A stretch of 64,000 bases of DNA from Bacilli bacterium (GTDB lineage: Bacteria; Bacillota_I; Bacilli_A; RFN20; UBA1709): assembly GCA_050949315.1 (NCBI GenBank), contig JBMNFL010000001.1, positions 256,001-320,000 on the forward strand. Reading direction: 5' to 3'. Below, one piece after another: positions 7,699 to 15,025 of this stretch. Under the pieces are notes generated by a model. That model saw only the letters and a list, made by a program, of their open reading frames with translations. It searched no databases and was not told the origin of the DNA. A program made the translations under genes and the position numbers. Within the stretch, counting starts at the first letter, position 1; each line of letters begins with the position of its first letter.

Positions 7699-8442
7699 AT
7701 GGAACTAAAAGAATATTTAGACTATTTAGTTGATTTTCTCAAAGATTACCTAAAGAAGGCTAATGCCGATGGCTATGTGCTCGGTGTTTCGGGTGGTGTT
7801 GATTCCGCTGTCTGCGCCCAATTAATAAAAAGAGCCTGTGGTGATAACTGCTTGGGCCTTATTTTACCTTGTTATTCTGAGCCTACAGACACCGAAGATG
7901 CCATTTTAGCTTGTAAAGCGGCCAATTTAGAGTTTAAGACTATAAGTCTTAACGATAATTTTGACATCTTTAAAAAGTTGTTAATTAGTAGTTTTAAAGT
8001 AGAAAATAATAGCAATAGCCTTATGACATTTGCTAACCTAAAAGCGCGTCTAAGGATGCTTACACTTTACGCGACGGCCCAATTAAAAAGGTACTTAGTT
8101 ATCGGCACTGATAATCTAGCCGAGTACTATGTGGGTTACTTTACTAAGCACGGTGATGGGGCCTGTGACATTTTACCTTTGGTGCGTCTAACTAAAACCG
8201 AGGTGACTGAGGCGGCTAGGATTTTAGGGGTTCCCGAAAAAATTATCAATAAGCGCCCCACGGCGGGACTTATTGAGAGTAGTTATGATGAGCTAGAGTT
8301 GGGCTTTAGTTATAAAGATCTTGATGCTTTCTTAAGGAAACAGGAAATTGACCCCAGAATTAGGGCGAAAATTGAGCAAATGCATAAGAATAGCGCCCAT
8401 AAGCGCGCCTTAGCGCCAAGACCTAAGCCTTTCCGGCCATAA
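7699..8442 (+). CDS. nadE: NH3-dependent NAD+ synthetase
   Basis: GVSGGVDS, NLKARLRM, GYFTKHGDG. Confidence 0.95.
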   Translation: MELKEYLDYLVDFLKDYLKKANADGYVLGVSGGVDSAVCAQLIKRACGDNCLGLILPCYSEPTDTEDAILACKAANLEFKTISLNDNFDIFKKLLISSFKVENNSNSLMTFANLKARLRMLTLYATAQLKRYLVIGTDNLAEYYVGYFTKHGDGACDILPLVRLTKTEVTEAARILGVPEKIINKRPTAGLIESSYDELELGFSYKDLDAFLRKQEIDPRIRAKIEQMHKNSAHKRALAPRPKPFRP

Positions 8443-8514: not shown

Positions 8515-9096
8515 GTGTTTGATTACATCATTGGCTACGTAAGAGAAGTAAAACCAAATATGATTGTTTTAGAAAGCAATAACGTTGGTTATCAGTTAAG
8601 TATTGCTAATCCCAGTTTTTATAAACTCGGGGAACTTATGAAAATCTACACCTTTTTACACGTAAGAGATGATGCTTTTGTTCTCTATGGTTTTAAAGAT
8701 CAAGAGGAAAGGCGTCTTTTCCTCAAATTAATTGACGTTTCGGGTTTAGGTCCCAAAACCGTTATCGGAATGTTCGTTAATGTCACGGCCCCTCAATTGA
8801 TCCAGGCGATTGAGACGAGTAACACCGCTTTTTTAAAGAAATTACCAGGAATTGGTCCCAAGGCGGCCCAGCAAATCATCCTTGATTTAAAGGGAAAATT
8901 GGTTTTAGATAGCGACGTTGCCGCTGGTGTTAAAATTAGTAATGAATTAGAAGAAACACGCGAGGCTTTAAAGTCTTTAGGCTTTAAAGTCAGTGAAATT
9001 GATGGGGTTTTAGCCAAATTAAGTAAGACTAAAGCCACCACCAAAGAGTATCTAAAACAAGCTTTAAAAATGCTTAACAAAGCAAAAACATATTAA
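8515..9096 (+). CDS. ruvA: Holliday junction branch migration protein RuvA
   Basis: VGYQL, LYGF, VSGLGPK, LPGIGPKAAQQIILDLK. Confidence 0.96.
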   Translation: MFDYIIGYVREVKPNMIVLESNNVGYQLSIANPSFYKLGELMKIYTFLHVRDDAFVLYGFKDQEERRLFLKLIDVSGLGPKTVIGMFVNVTAPQLIQAIETSNTAFLKKLPGIGPKAAQQIILDLKGKLVLDSDVAAGVKISNELEETREALKSLGFKVSEIDGVLAKLSKTKATTKEYLKQALKMLNKAKTY

Positions 9097-9108
9097 GGGA
9101 GAAAAAAG

Positions 9109-10116
9109 ATGGAAGATAGACTAGTAAGTGGCAGTTATGACGCTACTATTGATTCTGATGAATTGTCATTACGTCCACGGACTCTTGCTGAATATGTCGG
9201 TCAAACTAACAATAAGCATAACTTAGGTGTTTTTATCGCGGCCGCTTGTTCACGTAATGAAGCTTTGGATCATGTCTTACTATATGGTCCTCCAGGTTTA
9301 GGAAAAACCACTCTAGCTCATGTCATCGCTCATGAAATGGGGGGAAATATTCGCGTTATCAGTGGACCAAGTATTGAAAAAACTGGGGATTTAGCAGCGA
9401 TTTTAACAACTTTAAATGCAGGAGATATCCTTTTTATTGATGAAATCCATCGTTTACCACGAATAGTAGAAGAACTTATGTATTCAGCGATGGAAGATTA
9501 TGTTATCAATATCGTAGTCGGCAAAGATGCTGGCGCCCATTCAATCAGTTTAGATCTACCGCCCTTTACCTTAGTTGGAGCAACGACTAGGGCTGGAGAC
9601 TTATCAGCACCTCTACGTGATCGCTTTGGTATCACCTTAAAATTAGAATACTATTCGCAATTAGAAATTGCCCAAATTGTCCGCAGGACAAGTAAAGTTT
9701 TTGAATGCCCGATTGATGAAGCCGCGGTAGAAGAAATTTCTATGCGCTCTAGAGGGACACCAAGGGTGGCCAATCGTTTATTTAGACGTATTCGCGACTT
9801 TGCCACTGTTAAAAATGAAGGGACCATATCCTTAGAGGTTGCTAAACACGCTCTTGATGCTCTGCGGGTGGATTCTTTAGGCTTAGATAGCATGGATTTA
9901 CGTTATTTAAAGGGTATTATCGTGCGTTTTAAGGGTGGACCTGTTGGCTTAGAAGCCATCGCAGCCGCCATCGGTGAAGAGGTTATGACCTTGGAAGATG
10001 TCTGTGAACCCTATCTCCTACAGATTGGGATGATTAACCGCACGCCACGGGGAAGAATCGCCACTGAAAAGGCTTATGCTCATTTGAAGTTACCTTACCA
10101 AGGAACCCTAGTTTAG
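9109..10116 (+). CDS. ruvB: Holliday junction helicase RuvB
   Basis: [33 protein letters not shown]. Confidence 0.98.
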
Positions 10117-10129
10117 GGTTCTTTTCTTT
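10103..10129 (+). terminator. Terminator after ruvB
   Basis: GAACCCTA-GTT-TAGGGTTC followed by TTTT. Confidence 0.7.
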
Positions 10130-10265
10130 GATAAGTAGGCAAAATTAAGCGATTTTTGTTGAATTGCCAAGGGAATAGTGTTAAAGTTAAAAGCGATATT
10201 ATTTATCAGCTTTTTTACTTTGTTTATAAACAAAGACAAAAGAAGGTAAAAAATGGAGGGTTACG

Positions 10266-12776
10266 ATGCGTAGATTAATTGCTTTTATCAGCCTAGCCAT
10301 CGCCATGATTGTGATAGCGATTGCCGGCGTTCCAACTTTGACTAATCGCTTAAAGGCGGGAACCGAGTTTCAGGGCGGTTATGACATTCTTTATAAGGTG
10401 ACAACCTCGGATGGGGTCAGTTATCAAGGAACGGCTTTAAAAAATGTCATGACTAAAGCCACTAAAACGGTCAACGATCGTCTTAATGCTTTAAATATTT
10501 CCTATCCCCAAGTTTCAGTGGAAGACGAGGAGTATATCCGCGTAACTGTCCCAGCCAACAGCGAAAGCGAACTCAATTTAATTCGTAACACCCTTATTTC
10601 TAATGGAAAAATCAGCCTTCGTGATATCGATGATAAATTATTAGCCACGGGTGAAGAATTGATCAGCTTCATTTCTTTAGTTTACCGTGATGGTGTCCCC
10701 TATATGGGCGTCAAAATTAAGAATTATGACAAGCTTAAAGAGATAACAACGGCCCAGGCTAGAAAATATACTGGCAAAGAAAACGATCCCACTAGCGCGA
10801 TTGTTTTCTGGCTGGGTTTTGAAGAGACTTATAGTGAAAACACCAAGGAAGAAACAGGTTTTGACGGTGATAGCTATGCTAATTTACAGAATAATGTCTA
10901 TAGTCAGTGGAAAGTCTTGTCAACTTTAGCTATTGATGCCCCCATTGAGGAAGACTTTACCGTTCAAGGGGCTTTTACCGAGACTAATATGGCGGTTTTA
11001 AACAGTATTCTTTCAACAGATCCCGTTAACTATACTCTAACGGAAGAATACTATTCTGAACATGGTAGTGTGCTTGGAGAAGACGTTCCAAATAGGGTTC
11101 TGTTGGCAGCTCTTATCGGTTTAGCCATCATCGCAATTCTAATGATTATCGCCTATCGTTTTGCGGGACTTATCGCCATTTTGTCTATTATCCTACACAG
11201 CGTTTTAGTTTTGGCTTCCTATAATTTAATCGGTGGTTTATTCGGTAGTGATACTGTTGCGGCTTTGACAATTGGTATCACTTTAGCCGTCAATGCCAAC
11301 GTCATTTTGGTTGAACGCATCAAAGATGAGATAAGAAAAGGGAAGAGTTTAGCCCGTTCTTATACGGAAGGATCTAAAAAATCGGTTTCCACCATCCTAG
11401 ATTCAACAGTACTGGTAACCCTTGCTTCTTTGGCTTTGTATTTATTAGGAAATCAGGTGGTTAAAAGTTTTGCCGCGGTGATGATCATCACCCAAGTTTC
11501 TATTATTATCGTCGTCGTTTTACTAACAAGATTACTGCTATCTCTTGTCTGCAATAACAAAAAACTCGAGGGAAAAACCGAGTGGTTTGGTGTTAGTAGC
11601 AAGGAGATTGAAGATATAAGCAATCTTGAAGAATACACCAAGAAAAGTGTTTTTGATAAGACCAATTTCCTCTTTGATTTTAAAAAGTTGATTATTGGAC
11701 CGGCTCTTGTGGTTTTGCTTGGCATAGTCATTGGCTTAATCGGTCAAGTAAGCAATCATAAATTTTTCAACTATAATAGTCAAATGAGTGGAGGGACACG
11801 CATTTATTTTAAGACTATCGATCCTAAATTTTCCACTGAAGATGGCGTCATTAAATTCTTTGTTTCTGAGGCCTACGCTAAAAGAAGTCCTAGCGAAGTC
11901 ACGATTGGAACATCGCATGTTAACTATAGCAGTGATGACCTTGTACAGTATAAAGAAACTTTCGCCGCTTATGGATTAGATACCACGACTGTTAGTCGTA
12001 ATAGGGTAACGGTCTATAATGTTGTTGTCACTTTTGATCGCCATTTGGATAACACCTCAAAAGAGGCCATTAACGATTATTTTGAGGCGGAAAAAGCAGC
12101 CTTTTATGATAGTGATAAGAGCATTGAACTCTTAAAAACCAATTATACTTTGGCAGATTATAAGCCCTATTCTGGTCAGGCGACTATTGTAAACGCCTTA
12201 AAGGCCTTTGCGGCTTTGATAGTGGTTAGTTTGCTTTATCTAGCCATTCGCTTCAGTTGGTCGTATGCTGTGGCTGGCATTATCACTTTAACCCATAATG
12301 TTTTGTTAATACTGGGCTTACTGGCAATAACTCGCTTGAGTTTCGGTATTGAAACGGTGATTATTATTCTAGCTTTGCTTCTTTATTCTATTAATAATAT
12401 GGTCGTCACTTTTGATCGATTAAGGGAAAGTGTGGCCGAATCAAAAGAAGTTTGGACTACTGAGAGTAGGAGAGTCTACTACAATAAAGCCTTGCAAGAT
12501 ACGATGTATGGTCAAATCTTTAGTGCTATTAGCTTATTTGCCATCATCATCGCCTTACTACTTTTCTCCGGCGCCAGTATCCTTGCAGCCAATGTTATTT
12601 TAGCCCTAGCCTCTATAGTAGCCTTTTATGGTTGCTATCTCTTTTTACCCCATATTTGGGTCTATTTTGATAGTCATTTTGCCGTACTTCGTGCCAAACG
12701 GAAAGCTCGCAAAAAACCCCGGGTTAAAGAGGCTAATGAAGTCGAAGAATACATCTTCTTTGGCGTTAACGATTAA
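10266..12776 (+). CDS. secDF: Fused protein translocase subunit SecDF, divergent
   Basis: Two membrane halves with large external domains; xQGG, AVNANVILVERIKDE and YSINNMVVTFDRLRE motifs; upstream of rel as in Bacilli. Confidence 0.88.
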   Translation: MRRLIAFISLAIAMIVIAIAGVPTLTNRLKAGTEFQGGYDILYKVTTSDGVSYQGTALKNVMTKATKTVNDRLNALNISYPQVSVEDEEYIRVTVPANSESELNLIRNTLISNGKISLRDIDDKLLATGEELISFISLVYRDGVPYMGVKIKNYDKLKEITTAQARKYTGKENDPTSAIVFWLGFEETYSENTKEETGFDGDSYANLQNNVYSQWKVLSTLAIDAPIEEDFTVQGAFTETNMAVLNSILSTDPVNYTLTEEYYSEHGSVLGEDVPNRVLLAALIGLAIIAILMIIAYRFAGLIAILSIILHSVLVLASYNLIGGLFGSDTVAALTIGITLAVNANVILVERIKDEIRKGKSLARSYTEGSKKSVSTILDSTVLVTLASLALYLLGNQVVKSFAAVMIITQVSIIIVVVLLTRLLLSLVCNNKKLEGKTEWFGVSSKEIEDISNLEEYTKKSVFDKTNFLFDFKKLIIGPALVVLLGIVIGLIGQVSNHKFFNYNSQMSGGTRIYFKTIDPKFSTEDGVIKFFVSEAYAKRSPSEVTIGTSHVNYSSDDLVQYKETFAAYGLDTTTVSRNRVTVYNVVVTFDRHLDNTSKEAINDYFEAEKAAFYDSDKSIELLKTNYTLADYKPYSGQATIVNALKAFAALIVVSLLYLAIRFSWSYAVAGIITLTHNVLLILGLLAITRLSFGIETVIIILALLLYSINNMVVTFDRLRESVAESKEVWTTESRRVYYNKALQDTMYGQIFSAISLFAIIIALLLFSGASILAANVILALASIVAFYGCYLFLPHIWVYFDSHFAVLRAKRKARKKPRVKEANEVEEYIFFGVND

Positions 12777-12823
12777 TATAATTTATACTTCCTGACAAGG
12801 TAGAAAGTGAGGTGACACCTTGG

Positions 12824-15025
12824 ATGGAAAAGAACTCAAAATCTTTCGACGAGGTGTTAACTGTAGCCGGGCGCTACCTTACCCAGAAAGAAAGTATTGA
12901 TTTAATCACCGCGGCTTATGAATATGCCAAGAAGGCTCACGACGGTCAGTTTCGCAAAACCGGTGATCCTTATGTTAGTCATGTTGTTAATGTCGCTTAT
13001 ATTTTAGCAAGTCTTCAGGCTGGCCCACAAACCATCGCCGCCGGTTTATTACACGATACGATTGAGGATTGTGGGAAAGAATATAGTGAAATTGCTGAAC
13101 TTTTTGGTATTGAAGTGGCCGACATGGTGGAAGCGGTAACCAAAGTCGGTCGTTTAAAAACCGCCACCAATGAAGAATTCGAAGCGGAAAACCACCGCAA
13201 AATCTTTATTGCCATGGCTAAAGATATTCGGGTGATTATCATAAAACTTGCTGATCGCCTGCACAATATGCGCACCCTTTATGCTCATGAATATTATGGA
13301 CAACAAAAGCGAATTGCCCAGGAAACCCTTAAGGTTTTTGCCCCCATTGCTCATCGACTCGGTATCAATACCGTCAAAAGCGAACTAGAAGATTTAGCCC
13401 TAAAATATTTAGAACCTGAAAAGTACGGCCTAATCAAAAACCTCTTAGCTAAAAAAGAGATTGAACGCAAGGCTACCTTAGATGCGATGAATGTTCGAAT
13501 TGAAAATTTGTTAAAACAATACAACATCCCGCATAGTATTTCTGGCCGGGTAAAAAGCATCTACAGTATTTATAAAAAGATGTTTGTCAATCATCGGATG
13601 TTTGAAGAAATCTATGATTTGCATGCCCTGCGTATCATCACCGATACCGTCCCGCATTGCTATGAGATTTTAGGTTATATTCACGCGACTTATCGACCAA
13701 TTCCCGGTCGTTTTAAGGATTATGTAGCTATGCCTAAGCCTAATCTATACCAATCCTTACACACCACCATCGTCGCTGAAGATGGGGCGATTTTTGAAAT
13801 TCAAATCCGCACTAAGGATATGGATGAAATTGCCGAGACCGGTGTTGCCGCCCACTGGCGCTATAAAGAAAACACTAACTATAGCTCTAAGGCTGAGCAA
13901 AAAGAAATTGAAGAAAAACTCCACTGGTTTAGGGAGCTAGTTTCCATCAGTGATGAACAAGCGGAAATCAACGCTAGAGAATATATGGAGTCCTTACAAC
14001 AGGATATCTTTGAAGCTAATGTCTACGTTTTAACCCCCAAGGGACGAGTCATTGATCTACCTAAAGGGTCGACACCTGTTGATTTTGCCTATCGTGTTCA
14101 CACCCAAGTTGGACACAATACCATCGGAGCCACGGTCAATGGGGTTTTAGTACCGCTCAGCACCCATTTAAAGACGGGGGATGTAGTAGATATCAAAACC
14201 AGTAAATTGCCACAACTTCCCAATGAAGACTGGTTAAAGTTTGTCAAAACGAATGGGGCTAAAAACTCTATTAAAAAAGCTATTATGAAGAGCAATCTTG
14301 ACCAGCGTAAAGATGAATTTATCGCTCAGGGGCGTGAGATGGTTGAGAATGCCTTGAAAAATGATAAAAATATTGATTATCAAAACGCTGTTAAGAAACT
14401 TGATGACAAGAAATTTTTAAGTTTAATGAATGTTGAAACTCTTGATGCTTTATATACCGCGATTGCTACTAAAAACAGTACGCTAGGAACCCTGCTTGGT
14501 CATCTTCGCAACGTTGAGAAAAAAGAGAACATTCAAGAGTTTGCTAAAAAGAAAATTATCGAGAATATTTCAGGAGTTATTGTTCCTGGTATCGATACGG
14601 TAGCCATCACCTTTTCTCAGTGCTGTTCCCCAATTCCTGGTGATGAAATTGTCGGCTATATTTCCAAAGGGAAGGGCATTAAAGTCCATCGTATTGATTG
14701 CCATAATGTCCGCCAAGAATCTCGGCGTTTAATTGATATAAAATGGGACTATGAGTGGATTAAAGAAAATACCAGTCTATACTATGTAGACATTCAAGTT
14801 AGGGCCGCAGATCGTCCTCAACTCATGTCCGGTGTTGTCAATCATTTGTCGATGCTAAAAGTTAGTGTTAACTCGGTCAATCGTGTAAGAGATCCCAGTA
14901 GCATGGGCGTGGCTTTAAATCTCTGTATTCAAGTTCGCAATGCTCTTCATCTACAAGAGATCATGAATTCTCTGGGAAACAATGTGACAGGAGTAACGAG
15001 TATTGAACGCATTACTAAATCTTAA
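12824..15025 (+). CDS. rel: Bifunctional (p)ppGpp synthetase/hydrolase Rel
   Basis: HD motif LLHDTIED; GRVK, YQSLHT, EIQIRT; TGS, ZFD and ACT regions; SD GAGGTGA favours ATG 12824. Confidence 0.96.
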   Translation: MEKNSKSFDEVLTVAGRYLTQKESIDLITAAYEYAKKAHDGQFRKTGDPYVSHVVNVAYILASLQAGPQTIAAGLLHDTIEDCGKEYSEIAELFGIEVADMVEAVTKVGRLKTATNEEFEAENHRKIFIAMAKDIRVIIIKLADRLHNMRTLYAHEYYGQQKRIAQETLKVFAPIAHRLGINTVKSELEDLALKYLEPEKYGLIKNLLAKKEIERKATLDAMNVRIENLLKQYNIPHSISGRVKSIYSIYKKMFVNHRMFEEIYDLHALRIITDTVPHCYEILGYIHATYRPIPGRFKDYVAMPKPNLYQSLHTTIVAEDGAIFEIQIRTKDMDEIAETGVAAHWRYKENTNYSSKAEQKEIEEKLHWFRELVSISDEQAEINAREYMESLQQDIFEANVYVLTPKGRVIDLPKGSTPVDFAYRVHTQVGHNTIGATVNGVLVPLSTHLKTGDVVDIKTSKLPQLPNEDWLKFVKTNGAKNSIKKAIMKSNLDQRKDEFIAQGREMVENALKNDKNIDYQNAVKKLDDKKFLSLMNVETLDALYTAIATKNSTLGTLLGHLRNVEKKENIQEFAKKKIIENISGVIVPGIDTVAITFSQCCSPIPGDEIVGYISKGKGIKVHRIDCHNVRQESRRLIDIKWDYEWIKENTSLYYVDIQVRAADRPQLMSGVVNHLSMLKVSVNSVNRVRDPSSMGVALNLCIQVRNALHLQEIMNSLGNNVTGVTSIERITKS

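Follow-up and report, generated by a model that had tools for sequence, protein, structure and literature searches.

The window, by which we mean the whole 64,000-nucleotide stretch analysed here, encodes a fused SecD-SecF protein in which all three residues of the canonical ion relay are replaced, and on the sequences compared we lean towards reading this SecDF as a translocon accessory that works without the canonical relay and is probably not ion-driven. The source is a ~1.0-Mb genome of an anaerobic-digester Bacillota, assembled as one contig of 1,011,443 bases at 92.85% completeness. The relay comprises an Asp in transmembrane helix (TM) 4, an Asp in TM10, and an Arg in TM11 (the triad; D340, D637, and R671 in Thermus thermophilus), and at these positions the window protein carries N343, N711, and G749. 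In PMC5974789 the three residues, there named esAspIV, esAspX, and esArgXI, are described as essential, and mutants at these sites fail to complement SecDF depletion.

The replaced residues were located by several alignments. When the protein was searched with phmmer against PDB chains (5xan of Deinococcus radiodurans, E = 8.4e-34; 3aqp of T. thermophilus, E = 2.3e-32), the segment lAVNANVilvERIKDE was paired with aAVDGNVisfERIKEE, tlTHNV with aiHDV and vaHDV, YSINNMvvtfDRLRE with YSINDSivvsDRIRE, and alqdTMYGQ with siNQTLSRT. It is because of these pairings that D340, D637, and R671 are equated with N343, N711, and G749. MAFFT alignments of 17, 42, and 150 sequences put the relay columns at the same places, and an artefact of misalignment was ruled out, since HMMER gives the same result as the three MAFFT alignments and the columns are anchored by the AVxAN..ERIKDE and YSINx..FDRLRE segments on their flanks. 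The 150 sequences are the best cluster representatives from a full HMMER scan, and with 6-8 rows gapped at the SecF positions, 121 of them carry the canonical Arg at 749. The initial annotation of this DNA, made from the letters alone, had claimed that the three relay residues and the Asp of TM9 are replaced while the cytoplasmic ERIKDE and FDRLRE motifs and the full-length open reading frame (ORF) are intact. The alignment columns and the codons bear out both claims: formal alignment places no acidic residue at the equivalent positions, and ERIKDE (residues 350-355) and FDRLRE (residues 716-721) are unchanged. The same annotation had reported a drift of the GLDLxGG and GIDFxGG motifs. These sites do read GTEFQGG and SQMSGG, but G[IT]EFxGG (GIEFKGG, for example) is common to the canonical-triad relatives in the family, so that the GLDL change characterises the family as a whole and has no connection with the loss of the triad.

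Family membership is clear at the level of the domain and less so at the level of the named equivalogs. PF02355 (SecD_SecF_C) matched in two stretches with 106.6 bits (gathering cut-off 20.5), and the TIGR00916 subfamily model was passed with 159.7 (cut-off 148.6). All NCBIfam equivalog cut-offs for SecDF, SecD, and SecF were missed, the best being NF009581 with 338.4 against 1058; TIGR01129 (173.5 against 244.4) and TIGR00966 (140.4 against 160) also stayed below their cut-offs. From an alignment of 93 sequences AlphaFold2 gave a model with a mean predicted local distance difference test (pLDDT) score of 91.2 and a predicted template modelling score of 0.90, in which twelve long helices and a pair of outer domains of mixed alpha/beta structure are seen. 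Comparison of such a model with SecDF structures had been proposed in the initial annotation, and its outcome supports the assignment: Foldseek ranks 1-7 are all SecDF chains, headed by 5yhf (E = 4.2e-31, TM-scores 0.65/0.73) and including 5xap, 5xan, and 3aqp. The predicted 12-TM fold, with a P1 domain between TM1 and TM2 and a P4 domain between TM7 and TM8, is thus in the model like that of solved SecDF proteins.

Loss of the triad is shared with a group of close relatives. In what follows, G000 is the window's own genome, G000-G011 are 12 genomes of its family, and L and P labels denote aligned loci and cluster representatives. A quick IQ-TREE analysis (LG+G4) placed the window protein in a clade of eight rows, corresponding to seven distinct protein clusters, with a Shimodaira-Hasegawa-like approximate likelihood ratio support of 100; the stem of this clade measures 0.83 changes per site, compared with 0.16 for its canonical sister group. 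In all eight rows G has taken the place of the TM11 Arg, and N that of the TM10 Asp, or T in L014/P0059. At TM4 the clade is not uniform: the window protein, P0002, and P0003 have N, P0005 and P0058 have G, L014/P0059 has Y, and L013 still has D. The Arg and the TM10 Asp were thus lost on the clade stem, and the TM4 Asp later, at least twice. Outside the clade, D, HD, and R are retained in nine family genomes (G001-G006, G008, G010, and G011) as well as in P0006 and P0060, and the only family exception is L017 with N at the TM10 Asp. A profile built from the seven members found no further triad-less clade member in a search of 5.8 billion clustered proteins. From the isosteric Asp-to-Asn changes the initial annotation had argued for selection. 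This inference is weakened because the sister lineages vary, with G or Y at TM4, T at TM10, and in some of them S at TM9, because one lineage keeps the TM4 Asp, and because Asp to Asn is a single-base change.

The secDF copy is kept and is not decaying. All of its 836 codons are open up to a TAA stop, and the frame is open in all seven clade clusters, at divergences where RelA identity is 60-70%. Across the seven clade proteins 128 columns are invariant, including G749, T746, Q744, N345, F752, the C-terminal tail, and most of E350-K360. Nei-Gojobori estimates of nonsynonymous divergence (dN) were 0.30, 0.42, and 0.61 against relatives of 61%, 53%, and 39% identity, with proportions of synonymous differences of 0.74-0.77; nonsynonymous change is well below saturation, and purifying selection continues, though relaxed. 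An RNA library (X15) yielded contigs that are identical to secDF, cover codons 343, 711, and 749, and give depth in 29 of the 30 bins of 9100-13400; no sequence variants were seen in the contigs over secDF. A metagenome scan for closer relatives returned one relative, L042, and no closer DNA was obtained.

With divergence taken as 1 minus identity and RelA of the same genomes as the yardstick, the SecDF/RelA ratio had a median of 1.03 (range 0.94-1.51) in canonical pairs (n = 21), lay at 1.51-1.55 in triad-less pairs (n = 3), and had a median of 1.68 in mixed pairs (n = 21). By this measure of sequence divergence, SecDF diverges about 1.5 times faster relative to RelA within the clade. This acceleration and the long stem branch are what one might expect of a gene on its way to loss from a shrinking genome, with the relay gone first and the rest decaying slowly. 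Missing every NCBIfam SecDF equivalog cut-off would fit such a course as well, as would the widespread erosion of SecDF in the order: a SecDF match was found in 56 of 60 relatives with genomes of 0.8-2.4 Mb (57 of 61 with the window's own genome), and in four of the 61 there was none. We nevertheless regard decay as very unlikely, given the open frame in seven of seven clade clusters, the 128 invariant columns, the confidently predicted fold, dN values of 0.30-0.42 that are far under a saturated synonymous divergence (dS), the exactly matching RNA-library contigs, and the conservation within the clade of the new residues themselves (G749 invariant, Y748 in 6/7, and F752). The initial annotation had named the combination of relatives that keep Asp and a decaying copy as a finding that would speak against it; canonical relatives do keep Asp, and this copy does not decay.

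The faster change is unevenly distributed along the protein. When triad-less pairs were set against 19 canonical pairs of similar RelA divergence, the largest drop in identity was in TM8-12 (from 65% in canonical to 36-47% in triad-less pairs), with further drops in P1 (from 65% to 36-55%) and TM2-6 (from 75% to 50-63%) and none in P4 (43% in canonical and 32-54% in triad-less pairs). SecA identity within the clade is 73-81%. Four clade-specific residues, R298, Y748, F752, and H796, are conserved or nearly so within the clade and are not found in canonical relatives. The former Arg site is bordered by Y748 (F in P0058) and F752; H796 is close to where TM12 ends on the cytoplasmic side, and R298, which is H or N in two clade members, lies at the TM2-TM3 turn. 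These four residues suggest that TM11 and TM12 were remodelled and did not simply degrade.

That P1 and TM8-12 changed most, and that residues 278-430 give a weak Pfam MMPL match, could also be expected of a protein that has left the Sec translocon for another job of the resistance-nodulation-division (RND) type, such as lipid or lipoprotein handling. This account appears highly improbable. The top structural matches are all SecDF, and AcrB-type pumps are far weaker (E = 2e-15, TM-score ~0.4). Synteny with relA is conserved in the family genomes, and ruvB lies upstream in the window: secDF and relA/spoT are neighbours on one contig in G000 and eight further family genomes, of which G007 and G009 are triad-less and G001, G002, G004, G005, G008, and G011 canonical, and because this adjacency is common to both kinds of genome, secDF is a positional ortholog. 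There is, moreover, no other SecDF in the genome to do the Sec job, and a separate MMPL-type RND gene lies elsewhere. A PF02355 search of the window's own genome, a check proposed in the initial annotation, found no second SecDF; in the triad-less genomes G007 and G009, too, the SecDF match is the sole one (one each). A third, weak PF02355 match in the window's genome (G000:C1:607541-607981) was considered as a second SecDF and ruled out, as it belongs to a 1052-aa MMPL-type RND protein. This protein (locus L003, G000:C1:607094-610252, outside the window; Pfam MMPL E = 7.6e-23) has a very large repeat-like extracytoplasmic insert that separates its two TM bundles.

Taken together, the pattern fits a relaxed constraint on the relay after loss of the Arg, with the rest of the protein still constrained. 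In the reading that we favour, the window SecDF would no longer run the cycle that depends on Asp and Arg and is powered by the proton-motive force (PMF), and would assist SecYEG, SecA, and YidC without ion coupling; SecA and YidC were both found in the window's own genome. Its P1 domain may hold or ratchet emerging chains, and SecDF itself may scaffold the translocon. The proposed role can be likened to that of the E. coli SecD(D519N)F mutant, which still assembles into the holotranslocon. According to PMC7695460, E. coli SecD D519N shows no proton transport and no complementation, and the holotranslocon stays intact, with BAM binding and in-vitro inner-membrane transport retained.

Several points weigh against an uncoupled SecDF. 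Losing the canonical residues is no proof of losing ion coupling, and what we know of this protein comes from its sequence and a model. Synonymous sites are saturated and therefore yield no usable dN/dS, and the RNA evidence consists of contigs, for which DNA carry-over stays possible. Ion pumps are present in the genome, and an ion gradient is therefore available for use. An acidic residue stands at 343 or 745 in six of the seven clade members (at 343 in L013 and at 745 in five), and a polar cluster of N345, N678, N710/711, Q744, T746, and Y748 is kept where pure relaxation would have led to hydrophobic drift. Finally, an Asp in TM5 (D379, window 11400-11402) is kept in 21 of 21 triad-less representatives. 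In nine of these 21, D379 is the sole Asp or Glu in the cores of five helices (TM4, TM5, TM9, TM10, and TM11). We know of no functional report on this residue.

The acidic residues at 343 and 745 underlie the main alternative, in which ion coupling has been kept: after the Arg was lost, a single-carboxylate relay would have moved from TM4 (343) to TM11 (745), and an H+ or Na+ motor would persist. L013 combines D343 with Q745, and the window protein, P0002, P0003, P0005, and L014 combine N, G, or Y at 343 with D or E at 745, a position that is Q in 16 of 16 canonical sequences compared. TM11 is modelled as a helix from 732 to 767 with 749 near its middle, and 745, four residues ahead of 749, should by helical periodicity lie on the same helix face as the canonical Arg. 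The Asn/Gln/Thr/Tyr polar cluster conserved in the clade might support such a relay. Against this stand P0058, which has G343 and Q745 and hence a carboxylate at neither site, the small number of independent lineages (~4-5), which leaves the 343/745 pattern with little statistical weight, and more diverged triad-less SecDFs without any carboxylate in these helices, which show that an uncoupled end state is viable. The Na+-driven SecDF1 of Vibrio also keeps its Asp/Arg triad. We consider a relocated relay possible but rather unlikely.

A bioenergetic explanation for the loss, be it a missing gradient or a different ATPase, found no correlate, as ATPase types, Rnf, and pyrophosphatase span triad-less and canonical genomes and YajC was detected in neither. 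A V-type ATPase, RnfD, and a membrane pyrophosphatase are all present in the window's own genome. V-type ATPases with a double-hairpin c subunit were found in the triad-less G000 and G007 and in the canonical G001, G002, G005, G008, and G011; a c subunit of F-type size was found in the triad-less G009 and the canonical G004 and G010; and G003 has both types. RnfD and the membrane pyrophosphatase each occur in 10 of the 12 family genomes, with triad-less and canonical genomes represented in each case. The check on ATPase ion type called for in the initial annotation thus returned a V-type enzyme in the genome itself and no difference between triad-less and canonical relatives. YajC (PF02699) was detected in 0 of the 12 family genomes by a model that also misses 5 of 14 control genomes. 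The V-type ATPase operon (locus L004, G000:C1:36210-44795, outside the window) encodes a 169-aa double-hairpin c subunit with the motifs PGTQG, YQGK, and VETY. These motifs are similar to those of the Na+-binding site in Enterococcus hirae NtpK, and together with Rnf and the membrane pyrophosphatase they hint at sodium bioenergetics; the cell may thus run on Na+, which would favour the relocated relay.

Triad loss is not confined to this clade. Among the other genomes of the order, 29 yielded a scorable locus: 13 keep all three triad residues, 10 keep two, two keep one, three keep none, and one is incomplete; another 27 matched more weakly, yielded no locus, and are not part of this count. At the three columns 140 of the 150 representatives could be scored, and 18 keep none of the triad. 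At the three sites, the NCBI-named SecDFs of three Spiroplasma endosymbionts, relatives of P0192, have ALSSSI, IIHKII, and TLKSS. Asp and Glu are both absent from the cores of TM4, TM9, TM10, and TM11 in nine of 21 triad-less representatives.

These losses go together with a C-terminal tail. In the window protein the tail follows a basic linker, and its motif, ...EE.x.F.G[IV]ND (the "GIND" tail), is also seen in L013-L041 and P0058-P0198; it occurs in SecDFs of the order and of the Mollicutes type, canonical and triad-less alike, and not in those of the Bacillus type. Within the window's own genome this ending is unique to SecDF among ORF ends. The AlphaFold2 model gives the tail no secondary structure, with a mean pLDDT of 69-74 over the last two 10-residue blocks. 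P0083, P0087, and P0112, representatives that combine the tail with a canonical triad, pass the NCBIfam models NF009582 and NF046001 'SecDF_plasm', and the tail therefore marks the SecDFs of the Mollicutes type and of small-genome Bacillota. All 18 fully triad-less representatives carry the tail motif (16 scored by script; P0079 and P0102 on inspection of the alignment). The script called 102 representatives tail-less, and of these 86 keep all three residues and 13 lack one, mostly the TM10 Asp. It follows that esAspX is not universally required, and judged from these sequences it is evidently the most dispensable residue of the triad. In most of the 13, N, A, S, or H replaces the TM10 Asp, with TM4 Asp and TM11 Arg retained; the 13 include P0111, P0117, P0141, P0160, P0169, P0170, P0181, and P0185. 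On the sequence evidence, similar triad loss appears to have been reached repeatedly among tail-bearing SecDFs, including those of Spiroplasma endosymbionts.

A broader hypothesis, which we put forward tentatively and hold to be doubtful in its full form, is that SecDF has a selectable, possibly essential function without the Asp/Arg relay, and that in the tail-bearing SecDFs of reduced Bacillota another input makes PMF coupling dispensable, the triad thus having been shed many times independently. Candidates for this input are one carboxylate that has moved, D745 for example, or a mechanical link to SecA or the ribosome made by the conserved cytoplasmic motifs together with the GIND tail. A complex prediction of SecA with SecDF residues 796-836 scored 0.00; it gave no answer and weighs neither way.

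Coordinates of the gene, its motifs, and its neighbours are collected in Table 1. The ORF at 9109..10116 is taken to be ruvB from its translation. The spacer between it and secDF is 149 nt long (window 10117-10265); leader or arrest peptides have been described upstream of secDF in other Bacillota. Anaerobic-digester and bioreactor metagenomes contain near-identical DNA, and among the matches listed 20 runs from 14 studies contain all or part of it, some of these runs being a possible source of the assembly.

Table 1. Position of secDF, its relay sites and motifs, and the neighbouring genes in the window (TM, transmembrane helix; representatives are the 150 cluster representatives described in the text).
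Feature	Position	Strand	Basis
secDF, fused SecD-SecF, 836 aa	10266..12776	+	ORF list, Pfam, PDB phmmer, AlphaFold2, Foldseek
GGAGG ribosome-binding site, 7 nt ahead of secDF ATG	10254..10258	+	upstream sequence
N343 (AAT) at TM4 Asp site (D340, esAspIV)	11292..11294	+	alignments; D in 127/150 representatives
cytoplasmic ERIKDEIRKGK helix after TM4, 8/11 residues invariant in triad-less clade	11313..11345	+	alignments
H677-N678 (CAT AAT) at TM9 His-Asp	12294..12299	+	alignments; D at 678 in 110/150
N710-N711 (AAT AAT), N711 at TM10 Asp (D637, esAspX)	12393..12398	+	alignments; D in 102/150
cytoplasmic FDRLRE after TM10, intact	12411..12428	+	alignments
D745 (GAT), TM11, one helical turn ahead of former Arg	12498..12500	+	D/E in 5/7 clade members
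Y748-G749 (TAT GGT), G749 at TM11 Arg (R671, esArgXI)	12507..12512	+	alignments; GGT codon at 12510
C-terminal tail E-V-E-E-Y-I-F-F-G-V-N-D, residues 825-836	12738..12773	+	alignments
nadE-like gene	7699-8442		ORF list
ruvA	8515-9096		ORF list
ruvB (presumed), neighbour upstream of secDF	9109..10116	+	ORF translation, Walker-type RuvB sequence
relA/spoT-type gene, neighbour downstream of secDF	12812..15025	+	coordinates in family genomes

Reviews and whole-cell models (PMC5974789, PMC12794154, and bioRxiv 10.1101/2025.04.25.650208) hold the TM4 Asp, TM10 Asp, and TM11 Arg of the SecDF proton motor to be indispensable. SecDF is taken as PMF-driven in the Mycoplasma pneumoniae work (bioRxiv 10.1101/2025.04.25.650208), which also has the HWD domain of SecA contact SecDF directly in cells, and in the JCVI-syn3A model (PMC12794154). 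The literature searched, which took in neither subscription journals nor supplements, yielded no account of natural SecDFs that lack the triad. The window SecDF is one example of a recurring tendency in reduced Bacillota that seems not to have been described before. As naturally occurring separation-of-function variants of a motor believed to depend strictly on protons, such proteins are of value, and they make an old question testable, namely what SecDF does without the canonical proton cycle, whether as scaffold or holdase, by another ion path, or through coupling to SecA. They also call for caution, in that the label 'PMF-driven' should not pass by annotation to SecDFs of the Mollicutes type.

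Among known systems, the SecDFs of T. thermophilus and D. radiodurans (3AQP, 5YHF, 5XAN, 5XAP) are the best matches in sequence and fold. Like the window protein they are fused 12-TM proteins of the RND type with P1 and P4 domains and cytoplasmic ERIKxE and FDRxRE motifs. Identity in the fold alignment is just 18-19%, and the window protein differs from them in having no equivalents of D340, D637, R671, and the TM9 Asp, in its extra C-terminal tail, and in the GTEFQGG of P1. Vibrio alginolyticus, with a Na+-driven SecDF1 and an H+-driven SecDF2, offers a precedent for another coupling ion; both of its paralogs keep the Asp/Arg residues, unlike the single SecDF of the window's genome. The tail-bearing SecDFs of the Mollicutes type (NF046001, NF009582) share the ...EE.x.F.G[IV]ND tail and the general architecture, but the window protein scores 266.7 bits against the NF046001 cut-off of 500 and so stays outside the SecDF_plasm members. 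With the SecDFs of Spiroplasma endosymbionts it has in common that the triad is gone; there the replacements are S, K, and S with a neighbouring K, whereas here they are N, N, and G, and the order is a different one. The E. coli SecD(D519N)F laboratory mutant resembles the window protein in the neutralisation of its TM4 Asp to Asn. That mutant fails to support growth, whereas the Asn form in the window is natural, is the sole SecDF of its genome, is kept within its clade, and occurs with two further relay residues gone.

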